From NCBI GenBank assembly GCA_943348755.1, contig CALQYS010000003.1:2482-66481 (forward strand): a stretch of 64,000 bases of DNA, in the 5' to 3' direction. Position numbers and translations under genes: made by a program. The notes beneath the pieces are model-generated. The model ran no database searches. It worked only from the letters and a program-made list of their open reading frames with translations, and was not told the origin of the DNA. Positions 17,085 to 18,612 of this stretch are shown piece after piece. Position 1 is the stretch's first letter; every line of letters begins with the position of its first letter. The DNA comes from Candidatus Nomurabacteria bacterium. Lineage in GTDB: Bacteria; Patescibacteriota; Minisyncoccia; Phycocordibacterales; UBA9973.

Positions 17085-18612
17085 AGCTTCCGCTACCCGT
17101 GCCTTGTTACGACTTAGTCCCTGTCACCGAGCTTACCTTAGGCCCCACTTATGTGGAGACTTCGGGTATTCCCGGCTCCCTTGACTTGACGGGCGGTGAG
17201 TACAAGACTTGAGAACGTATTCACCGCAGTTTAGCTGACCTGCGATTACTAGCAATTCCAGCTTCATGAAGGCGAGTTGCAGCCTTCAATCCGAACTGAC
17301 GCCATTTTTAAACGATTAGCTCAGAGTTACCTCGTCGCAACGCGTTGTAATGGCGATTGTATTATGTGTGTAGCCCAGGATATCAAAGGGACGTGCTGAC
17401 CTGGCGTCATCCTCTCCTTCCTCCCCCGACTTTACTCACGAGCTCGATAAAAATTTATCGCTCATGCTCAAAGTCGGGGGCGGTCTCGTGTGACACTTGT
17501 AACACACAACGAGGGTTGCGTTCGTTAGCCCACTTAAGGGTACAATTCAAACCACGAACTGACGACGGCCATGCATCACCTGTTCATACGTCTTGCGAGG
17601 CCCCGAGTTTCCTCGGGCTTTCGTATGAATTTCTAACCCTGGTAAGGTTCTTCGTTTACCATCGAATTAAACCACATAATCCACTGCTTGTGCAAGTCCC
17701 CGTCTATTCCTTTGAGTTTTAACCTTGCGGTCGTACTTCCCAGGCGGATCTCTTAACGCGTTAGCTAAGCCACTCAGAGGGTCGATACTCCGAATAGCGA
17801 GAGATCATCGTTTAGGGCGTGGACTACTGGGGTATCTAATCCCATTCGCTACCCACGCTTTCGTGCTTCAGTGTCAAATATGCGCCAGCGTACTGCCTTC
17901 GCATTTGGTGTTCCCCATGATATCAACGGATTTCACCCCTACACCATGAGTTCCGTACGCCTCTCACACTTTCAAGTTCTGCCGTTTCTTTCGCGTATCC
18001 CAAGTTAAGCTCGGGGCTTTGACAAAAGACTAACAGAACAACCTACGCACCCTTTACGCCCAATAATTCCGGATAACGCTCGAGGCTCTCGTATTACCGC
18101 TCCTGCTGGCACGAGATTAGGAGCCTCTTATTCATGAGGTACCGTCAATAAACTTCTTCCCTCATAAAAGATCTTTACGTCCCAGAGGGACTTCATCAAT
18201 CACGCGGCGTCGCTCCATCAGACTTTCGTCCATTGTGGAAGATTCTCGACTGCAGCCACCCGTAGGTGTATGGTCCGTGTCTCAGTACCATCGGTGGGGG
18301 TCAGGCTCTCACCTCCCCTAGACGTCATAGCCTTGGTAGTCCATTACACTACCAACTAGCTGATATCGCACAGGCCTTTCCAAGAGCGTTAAAACTTTAC
18401 CCTTGCGGGACCATCGTGTATTAGTCCGTCTTTCGACGGATTATTCACGACTCTTGGGGAAGTTCCTATGTATTACTACCTCGTTCGCCACTAATTTTTC
18501 ACGACCTTTGACTTGATATAATCTCATCTCCGATTTTGAAAAATCCGTTCGACTTGCATGCCTTATCCACGCCGCCAGCGTTCATCCTGAGCTAGGATCA
18601 AACTCTAAATAA
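17085..18612 (-). rRNA. rrs: 16S ribosomal RNA, about 1.53 kb, not linked to a 23S gene
   Basis: The 5' end AGAGTTTGATCCTAGCTCAG is present as its reverse complement at 18587-18606. The reverse complement of the 3' region AAGTCGTAACAAGG is at about 17103-17116. Conserved blocks found include CTTGTACTCACCGCCCGTC and a variant 515 region. The ends are approximate. Confidence 0.85.

Follow-up and report, generated by a model that had tools for sequence, protein, structure and literature searches.

Loss of the anti-Shine-Dalgarno (anti-SD) sequence from the 3' end of 16S rRNA has already been published for Parcubacteria. Specifically, Tsurumaki et al. (2022; RNA 28:1041, PMC9297842) detected the anti-SD motif in only 48% of Parcubacteria, and the lineages without the motif overlap the group that lacks uL1. 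The subject here is a 16S rRNA gene, together with the genes around it, in a stretch of 64,000 nucleotides from a Candidatus Nomurabacteria bacterium (GenBank assembly GCA_943348755.1, contig CALQYS010000003.1), referred to throughout as the window. Its host belongs to the same lineage as the motif-less subgroup, and CCTCCT is likewise undetectable at the 3' end of its 16S rRNA after helix 45 (h45); no rplA (uL1) region was found in Pfam scans of the 64-kb window. Unlike the present analysis, the earlier study omits what the tail became, the lack of Shine-Dalgarno (SD) motifs upstream of genes, and the route by which translation is initiated. The value of what follows is confirmation and mechanism rather than discovery: the absence of SD motifs is quantified with a positive control, displaced and variant anti-SD sequences are excluded, and evidence is given for a clade-wide leaderless arrangement of promoters and start codons. 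The explanation favored here, which we hold to be very probable, is that the anti-SD tail has been lost by substitution, that SD motifs have been lost as well, and that initiation proceeds without rRNA-mRNA pairing, with leaderless first genes.

A survey published in PLoS One in 2024 (PMC10783764) describes, as its class iv, 'SD-scarce organisms lacking CCUCC', among them Ca. Wolfebacteria, Ca. Campbellbacteria, SR1 and Peregrinibacteria. The window resembles class iv in having neither CCUCC nor SD enrichment; Nomurabacteria-type genomes are, however, unnamed there, and most taxa of the class are Flavobacteriia, Mycoplasma and insect endosymbionts with other tails. In an additional survey, CCUCCU was absent in 128 of 20,648 taxids and no co-evolved variant pair was observed (Amin 2018, PMC6107228). 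An initial annotation of this locus had called the arrangement uncommon among bacteria, a statement that holds for cultured and complete genomes (128/20,648; PMC6107228) but not within Parcubacteria, where it is common and already published (PMC9297842, PMC10783764). With respect to promoter placement, the GeneMarkS-2 study (10.1101/193490), in which CPR (candidate phyla radiation) lineages are not mentioned, describes a group C (Actinobacteria, Deinococcus-Thermus) in which, for a quarter to half of operons, a Pribnow box precedes the first-gene start by 6-8 nt. The window similarly shows a -10 box 6-8 nt ahead of first-gene starts, but while group C retains the anti-SD and uses SD motifs on internal and leadered genes, the window has lost the anti-SD and is devoid of SD motifs on all gene classes. 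Within the literature collection searched, no paper linking leaderless initiation to CPR lineages was found.

Most Bacteroidetes retain CCUCC, sequestered by ribosomal proteins (cited in PMC10783764). Initiation of the Bacteroidetes type resembles that proposed here in that genes are largely without SD motifs and start regions are A-rich; whereas the anti-SD of Bacteroidetes is occluded, however, CCUCC itself is lost in the window, and Parcubacteria often lack bS21. Eukaryotic 18S and mammalian mitochondrial 12S rRNAs also end in h45 followed by a CCUCC-less tail, with initiation occurring without rRNA-mRNA pairing and with mitochondrial mRNAs being largely leaderless. The tails of one family of relatives (GAUCAUUUA...) resemble the 18S end, GGAUCAUUA. 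Unlike the window host, the 18S and 12S systems belong to another lineage, with other initiation factor sets and in another context, and the resemblance is convergent.

The minus strand of the window from 17065 to 18613 is a full-length 16S rRNA gene (Rfam RF00177, scoring 1361.6 bits where the gathering score is 50, and spanning model positions 1-1533), the 3' end of which is composed of the following elements:

17065-18613, minus strand: 16S rRNA gene (RF00177 match, 1361.6 bits)
17078-17101, minus strand, read 17101-17078: helix 45, a 10-bp stem with a GGAA tetraloop, intact; CACGGGUAGC-GGAA-GCUGCUCGUG (Rfam alignment and sequence)
17058-17077, minus strand: remodelled 3' tail GAAUAAUUCAAUUUGAAAAC, conserved in relatives as GAnnAaUUCAAnnUGAAA (sequence, Rfam alignment and tails of relatives)
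17068-17072, minus strand, read 17072-17068: equivalent of the anti-SD core (CCUCC, E. coli 1535-1539), reading AUUCA (Rfam alignment)

Alignment to the Rfam model reveals that helix 44 (h44) and h45 are both intact, as the initial annotation had maintained for h45. At the 3' end, the consensus cugGAUcACCUCCUUu stands opposite GUGGAAUAAUUCAAUU in the window; the first tail base after h45 is G17077, and the tail reads GAAUAAUUCAAUU where the consensus reads GAUCACCUCCUUU, such that the canonical anti-SD tail is replaced. The words CCTCC, CTCCT, CCTCT and CACCT occur 0 times in the 440 nt downstream of h45, a span running through and past the terminator, which excludes a displaced anti-SD up to and beyond that point. 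Alignment to the small-subunit model had been suggested in the initial annotation, which also named a CCUCC further downstream, if reached by the mature 3' end, as a refutation; both results uphold its claim that the tail is devoid of the CCUCC anti-SD. The tail sequence quoted there is exact, though the coordinates given, 17085-17135, take in the last part of h44 and half of h45 (the 5' one) and stop just short of the tail, which is at 17058-17077. We infer the position of the mature 3' end, the coordinate 17065 being taken from the end of the Rfam model. Relative to that model, the gene also contains 35 extra nt near model position 80 and an inserted hairpin at about 17420-17483, and the base equivalent to E. 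coli 1396 is U, not A (GUACUCACCG).

The gene stands alone, with no 23S rRNA in the 64-kb window and no 23S or 5S downstream of it, and is bracketed by a set of signals:

18915-18943, minus strand: promoter-like site upstream of the 16S gene, TTGACT-17-TATACT (sequence)
18677-18700, minus strand: 5' arm of a leader-trailer (processing-type) stem enclosing the 16S gene (inverted repeat)
16863-16886, minus strand: 3' arm of the same stem, 24 nt, 92% complementary to 18677-18700 (inverted repeat I2)
16799-16841, minus strand: terminator-like hairpin followed by a U-run, past the 16S trailer (inverted repeat I4 and sequence)

The 3' trailer is long, extending about 190 nt ahead of the processing stem, and the 3' arm of that stem is followed by a second leader-trailer repeat and then by the terminator-like hairpin. 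The leader-trailer arms come from an inverted-repeat search; folding the leader against the trailer as a global duplex was uninformative. Taken together, the promoter-like site, the leader-trailer stem and the terminator-like hairpin make the 16S gene look like a complete stand-alone transcription unit.

The SD content of the window was determined for 63 non-overlapping open reading frames (ORFs) of at least 70 aa, with starts taken from a simple longest-ORF caller. An SD core (GGAG, GAGG, AGGA or AAGG) lies at positions -20 to -4 in 17% of these ORFs, compared with 12.8% of random 17-mers drawn from the window, while an identical pipeline applied to 50 kb of E. coli K-12 returned 61% against 11% random. 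Likewise, the mean energy of the duplex with ACCUCCUUA is -1.35 kcal/mol for upstream regions and -1.67 for random sequence, as opposed to -5.17 in E. coli, and a canonical anti-SD duplex of -4.5 kcal/mol or lower can be formed by 8% of window genes and 67% of those in E. coli, which identifies the window as SD-scarce. Among 596 ORFs pooled from 126 relatives the SD core is found in 19%, and neither in the window ORFs nor in the pooled relatives is any gene class enriched for SD motifs. These counts bear out the contention of the initial annotation that SD motifs are essentially absent upstream of genes. When the spacing between GGAG or GAGG and ORF starts was examined in an annotation-free manner, E. 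coli peaked at 5-8 nt and the window displayed only a 3-nt codon periodicity with no peak at 5-9 nt, in a test that is confounded by in-gene codon periodicity and for which the nominal p-value of the window is not meaningful. CPR loci retaining the anti-SD, meant to serve as an internal SD-positive control, supplied only 37 ORFs, too few to be used.

Also pertinent to SD-dependent events is the gene encoding release factor 2 (RF2):

40765-41652, minus strand: prfB (RF2; SPF and GGQ motifs), a single 295-aa ORF, 12 nt after tRNA-Thr (ORF and motifs)

The SD-stimulated +1 frameshifting of prfB-type genes needs an anti-SD, and the SD-dependent +1 frameshift site that is common in bacterial prfB is absent from prfB at 40765-41652. 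The encoded RF2 is short, the N-terminal part of the PCRF domain being missing, and two tandem tRNA-Thr genes lie just upstream (40765-41813, minus strand, for prfB and the tRNA genes together); given that prfB starts 12 nt after the tandem tRNA-Thr genes, the 5' end of its mRNA may come from tRNA processing. The MazF toxins of E. coli and Mycobacterium tuberculosis are reported to cut the anti-SD off 16S rRNA, and the 16S rRNA of the window has none to remove. A MazF/PemK-family toxin gene at 11442-11783 overlaps a Phd/YefM-like antitoxin gene at 11776-12060 (minus strand).

What is found upstream of many genes in place of SD motifs is a promoter element at a restricted distance from the start codon. 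Extended -10 sites matching TGNTANA[AC]T number 29 in the window, and 12 of them stand 5-8 nt ahead of an ORF encoding 60 aa or more (10 at exactly 6 nt, 2 at 8 nt), where random expectation is 3.4% (binomial p = 7.7e-11 for 12/29). The same preference is seen in relatives: of 313 sites in 126 loci, 31 lie 6 nt from an ORF start, 13 lie 7 nt and 6 lie 8 nt away, over a background of 0-4. In the window, the sites at 6 nt are as follows:

16340-16357, minus strand: TGTTATAAT-N6-ATG, start of the ATP-grasp gene 15419-16342
10856-10873, minus strand: TGGTAAAAT-N6-ATG, start of the DUF1653 gene
20491-20508, minus strand: TGGTATAAT-N6-ATG, start of the DUF2177 gene
21072-21089, minus strand: TGTTAAAAT-N6-ATG, start of the YggU-like gene
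30267-30284, minus strand: TGCTATACT-N6-ATG, start of the cytidylyltransferase-like gene, probably shifted to 30269
40753-40770, minus strand: TGTTAAAAT-N6-GTG, start of the ftsE-like ABC ATPase gene
53192-53209, minus strand: TGTTATACT-N6-GTG, start of gatC
56428-56445, minus strand: TGATATAAT-N6-ATG, start of ORF 55543-56430
58595-58612, minus strand: TGGTACAAT-N6-ATG, start of LemA, probably shifted to 58597
60990-61007, plus strand: TGATAAAAT-N6-ATG, start of ORF 61005-61532

Consistent with this spacing, a position matrix of the upstream regions is marked by T at -15, G at -14, T at -12, A at -11 and T at -7 and by A-richness from +4 to +12, and T occupies -1 in 60% of genes, so that a pyrimidine at -1 is followed by a purine at +1. 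A matrix of this kind would be predicted for transcripts whose first base is the A or G of the start codon, and it is there that we infer the transcription start sites to lie. The longest-ORF starts of the histidine phosphatase, cytidylyltransferase-like and LemA genes are probably wrong: on the grounds that a -10 box stands at leaderless spacing before downstream ATGs, and that Pfam boundaries fit the shorter proteins, these three starts were revised to 21127, 30269 and 58597. Overall, the signature is present in roughly half of the apparent first genes, the others, among them S1, secA, the SBP gene and RNase J, having SD-less leaders, and about 24 genes overlap, or sit no more than 20 nt from, the preceding gene on the same strand.

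These observations can be accommodated in a single scheme, in which the lack of the anti-SD, of SD motifs and of a compensatory motif, the distance between promoter and start codon and the clade-wide occurrence of the trait are demonstrated. The single-stranded anti-SD tail of the lineage has been replaced by substitution, GAUCACCUCCUUU giving way to GAAUAAUUCAAUU; the mRNAs have correspondingly lost their SD motifs without a new complementary pair having evolved, and start sites would be selected without rRNA-mRNA pairing. In the first genes of many units, an extended -10 element (TGnTAnAAT) that precedes AUG or GUG by 6 nt, in some cases by 7-8 nt, would cause transcription to begin at or beside the start codon, yielding leaderless mRNAs bound by way of the 5'-terminal start codon and initiator tRNA. 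For downstream genes in tight operons (gaps of -8 to about +20 nt), termination-reinitiation or scanning appears most likely, and downstream or leadered genes may be aided by A/U-rich, unstructured start regions and by the S1 homologue, a candidate helper for SD-less leadered mRNAs:

3587-4714, plus strand: ribosomal protein S1 homologue, 375 aa, multiple S1 domains (Pfam PF00575, 2.6e-39)

The distribution of the trait among relatives was assessed in two sets of loci. GyrA of the window (104-2566) shares 88-95% identity with proteins carrying the label Candidatus Nomurabacteria, Paceibacterota or Patescibacteria, identifying the host, as judged from sequence, as a Nomurabacteria/Paceibacteria-type CPR bacterium and hence a member of the Parcubacteria/Paceibacteria. 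Species genomes of GTDB scanned with an h44/h45 pattern that left the tail unconstrained yielded 120 loci, and a further 120 metagenome loci were added by means of the exact h45 sequence; many of the loci derive from samples of the Hainich aquifer. All loci of the GTDB scan with CACGG/TCGTG h45 arms are without CCUCC; loci of this type are labelled Paceibacterota, Nomurabacteria, Zambryskibacteria or Parcubacteria and include some third-party-annotation (TPA) metagenome-assembled genomes (MAGs) titled Saccharibacteria, while GAUCACCUCCUU is kept in loci of Actinomycetota, Chloroflexi, Magasanikbacteria and bona fide Saccharibacteria. Across GTDB and metagenome loci, the canonical tail is absent in 139 of the 141 relatives with an identical h45 sequence and kept in 2, which makes the absence a fixed trait of the lineage and not an assembly error. 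Besides the 2 canonical tails, CCTCC occurs within 70 nt in only 4 of the 141, the three that were located being at differing positions.

The tails fall into two families, GAnnAaUUCAAnnUGAAA, which includes the window, and GAUCAUUUUUUUAAAA, and the existence of intermediates (GAUCACUUCC..., GAUCAAUUCC...) suggests a stepwise decay of CCUCC. A neighbor-joining tree meant for counting independent changes of the tail was built from the 600 nt upstream of h45, a region in which insertions break homology in many loci; about a third of the tree is unreliable even after gap filtering, and it was put to qualitative use only. Among individual loci, L151 carries CCUCC within a CCUCC-UUCG-GGAGG hairpin 17 nt after h45, and L119, from a Thorarchaeota MAG, has some 36 nt between h45 and AUCACCUCC, a genuine displaced anti-SD. 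Several TPA MAGs of the GTDB set titled 'uncultured Candidatus Saccharibacteria' (L012, L024, L041, L044, L064, L071, L076, L094, L098 and L105) have a Paceibacteria-type h45 and an anti-SD-less tail, while the bona fide Saccharibacteria loci L021 and L036 retain GAU(C/U)ACCUCC; the titles of these MAGs are probably mislabelled.

Several other explanations of the remodelled tail merit consideration. Organisms that lack CCUCC and still show pairing do exist (class iii, PMC10783764), and it is conceivable that the new tail GAAUAAUUCAAUUUGAAAAC pairs with an A/U-rich motif that has co-evolved ahead of start codons, a proposal favored by conservation of the tail across relatives and by upstream regions sufficiently A/U-rich that some pairing is always possible. 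Shuffled versions of the upstream regions, however, pair with the new tail at least as well as the regions themselves (mean duplex -3.35 kcal/mol for the regions versus -3.88 for shuffles; -6 or lower in 10% versus 12%), no motif complementary to the remodelled tail is enriched among the window's upstream regions, and the 5-mers that are over-represented there (TGTTA, ATAAT, AATAA and TGATA) are words of the -10 promoter rather than tail complements or ribosome-binding-site words. The window thus shows no variant SD:anti-SD pair of the class iii kind, with an upstream motif complementary to the tail, nor was any variant anti-SD matched by a variant SD across the taxids surveyed by Amin (2018, PMC6107228). 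A variant pair is therefore very unlikely, and since upstream regions fail to pair with either the canonical anti-SD or the new tail, the proposition of the initial annotation that a remodelled tail goes together with SD-independent initiation is sustained. Alternatively, an insertion after h45 could have moved CCUCC downstream, with the mature rRNA reaching it. Insertions are known in CPR rRNA genes, one of 35 nt being present in the 16S gene of the window, the trailer is long, and the archaeal locus L119 demonstrates that such a situation exists; the lack of any CCUCC-type word in the 440 nt after h45 nonetheless refutes displacement for the window by sequence, and the differing positions of the three CCTCC words located in relatives also speak against it, leaving this explanation a negligible probability.

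It is also most improbable that the 3' end is mis-assembled or that the gene is a decaying copy, with a working 16S bearing a normal tail (GAUCACCUCC) located elsewhere. Although rRNA copy number is not visible from one window, the gene is full-length and high-scoring with intact h44 and h45, it possesses its own promoter-like site, leader-trailer stem and terminator, the same tail type recurs in over 120 independent assemblies, and the SD scarcity of the genes agrees with an anti-SD-less 16S. Some observations do weigh against pairing-free initiation with leaderless first genes. The evidence comes from one window, such that a second rRNA copy could lie elsewhere in the genome, and gene starts rest on our own longest-ORF heuristic applied to only 63 ORFs. 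One gene, encoding an M48 peptidase (53300-54187), has a good SD, the only one to do so, with AAGGAG at -13 to -8; this textbook motif presumably arose by chance, and the gene was counted against the proposal. Finally, about half of the apparent first genes, including those for S1, secA, the SBP gene, RNase J and htrA, are without a -10 box at leaderless spacing, from which it would follow that another SD-independent route must exist.

A possible addition, compatible with loss of the anti-SD by substitution, concerns a palindrome within the new tail:

17061-17071, minus strand: palindrome UUCA-AUU-UGAA, a possible mini-hairpin, weakly supported (CC/GG association and correlation of C and G counts)

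Under this proposal, which we regard as tentative and on balance doubtful, the palindrome folds as a mini-hairpin of 3-5 bp that replaces the single-stranded anti-SD and could either imitate the SD helix within the rRNA molecule itself or halt 3' exonucleases and thereby set the mature end. In its favor, GG occurs 4-10 nt downstream in 15 of 15 tails with CC in the 5' arm as compared with 7 of 109 others (Fisher p = 2e-14), tails of the CC type appear at four or more separate places in the rough tree, and arm variants include TCCA/TGGA, TTCC/GGAA, TTCT/AGAA and TTTC/GAAA. Similarly, tails with more C at positions 6-11 tend to have more G at positions 12-19 (rho 0.53, p = 2e-10; downstream control, rho -0.15). 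Helix 26, which contacts the SD helix, is moreover still conserved, for a reason described as unknown by Tsurumaki et al. (2022, PMC9297842). Against it, column covariation equals that of shuffles (71% paired in each) on both MAFFT and covariance-model alignments, which do not capture shifts in register and loop length, while an identical test was decisive for the trailer element described below. Predicted folding energy is -0.44 versus -0.43 in shuffles, the tail of the window itself is predicted to be unfolded, a control in which 3' halves were swapped gave only 0.55 versus 0.44, and a generic scan for the best hairpin was also weak; in addition, the sequences are phylogenetically clustered and not independent.

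Further downstream, the long 16S trailer contains a conserved, strongly covarying structured element:

16885-16982 (approximate), minus strand: conserved structured element of the 16S 3' trailer (blastn, motif scan, RNAalifold and pair-count test)

The element is made up of GUCGGU, two hairpins (one long with a CUCAAUUGAG apex, the other with a CAAAGA/GAAAGA loop) and, between them, a probable H-type pseudoknot, AGAC..AUAG..GUCU-UAAAAA-CUAU. Across the window and its relatives it takes the form of GUCGRU, a long hairpin whose apex is CUCAAUUGAG or CUCGAUCGAG, the probable pseudoknot with its UAAAA linker and a second, GAAAGA-looped hairpin. Of 134 relatives, 97 have a GUCGRY motif 15-150 nt past h45, loci with the element including L158, L137, L181, L183, L141 and about 90 others, and blastn shows the element to be 88-93% identical in relatives despite diverged intervening sequence. 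Of the 17 pairs predicted by RNAalifold, 12 show compensatory changes, and the pair-count test gives 94.9% paired versus 72.1% in shuffles (0/500), a signal that collapses when the partners are slid. No Rfam family matches the element. Pairing of the GUCGRU motif with the 16S leader was considered and rejected, being no better than in shuffled controls. Candidate roles for the element include 3'-end processing, assembly and retention in the mature rRNA. More speculatively, and in our estimation unlikely, the entire 16S 3' end may have been rebuilt as a lineage-specific module, in which a fold-back tail serves as a stand-in for SD:anti-SD pairing or as a 3'-end cap and the trailer element steers an unusual maturation or stays attached. 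If this were true, the module and the clade-wide leaderless promoters would together define a bacterial lineage with a ribosome re-engineered for pairing-free initiation.

Additional features of the window lie outside the 16S gene. After the 16S terminator stands a perfect 12/12 sigma-70 promoter, TTGACA-17-TATAAT, at 16789-16761 (minus strand), and the 414 nt that follow it (within 16343-16789, minus strand) fold far better than shuffles (z = -4.5). The sole ORF in this region, of 98 aa and odd composition, has no Pfam match and no tblastn match in relatives, and neither the 16S trailer nor the 414-nt region matches an Rfam family at E up to 1 or up to 10; the region is a candidate noncoding RNA or, alternatively, a candidate long structured leader of the ATP-grasp gene 15419-16342. 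A low-GC stretch (30-35%) at 44386-50503 contains an Eco57I/MmeI-type restriction-methyltransferase fusion (44386-47256) and a large serine recombinase gene (48657-50468) that abuts tRNA-Asp, with a PD-(D/E)XK nuclease gene at 43685-44380; this low-GC stretch with its restriction fusion, nuclease and recombinase looks like an integrated mobile or defense island.

The loss of the anti-SD carries practical consequences, in that gene callers relying on ribosome-binding-site models will misplace starts in such genomes, three starts in the window moving on the basis of promoter spacing, and in that 16S 3'-end annotation and primers aimed at the anti-SD region will fail. Taken together, the data present a clean sequence-level case of a free-living-type (non-endosymbiont) bacterial lineage without any Shine-Dalgarno pairing, and allow a concrete replacement mechanism to be proposed, in which leaderless transcripts would be set by TGnTAnAAT-N6-AUG.

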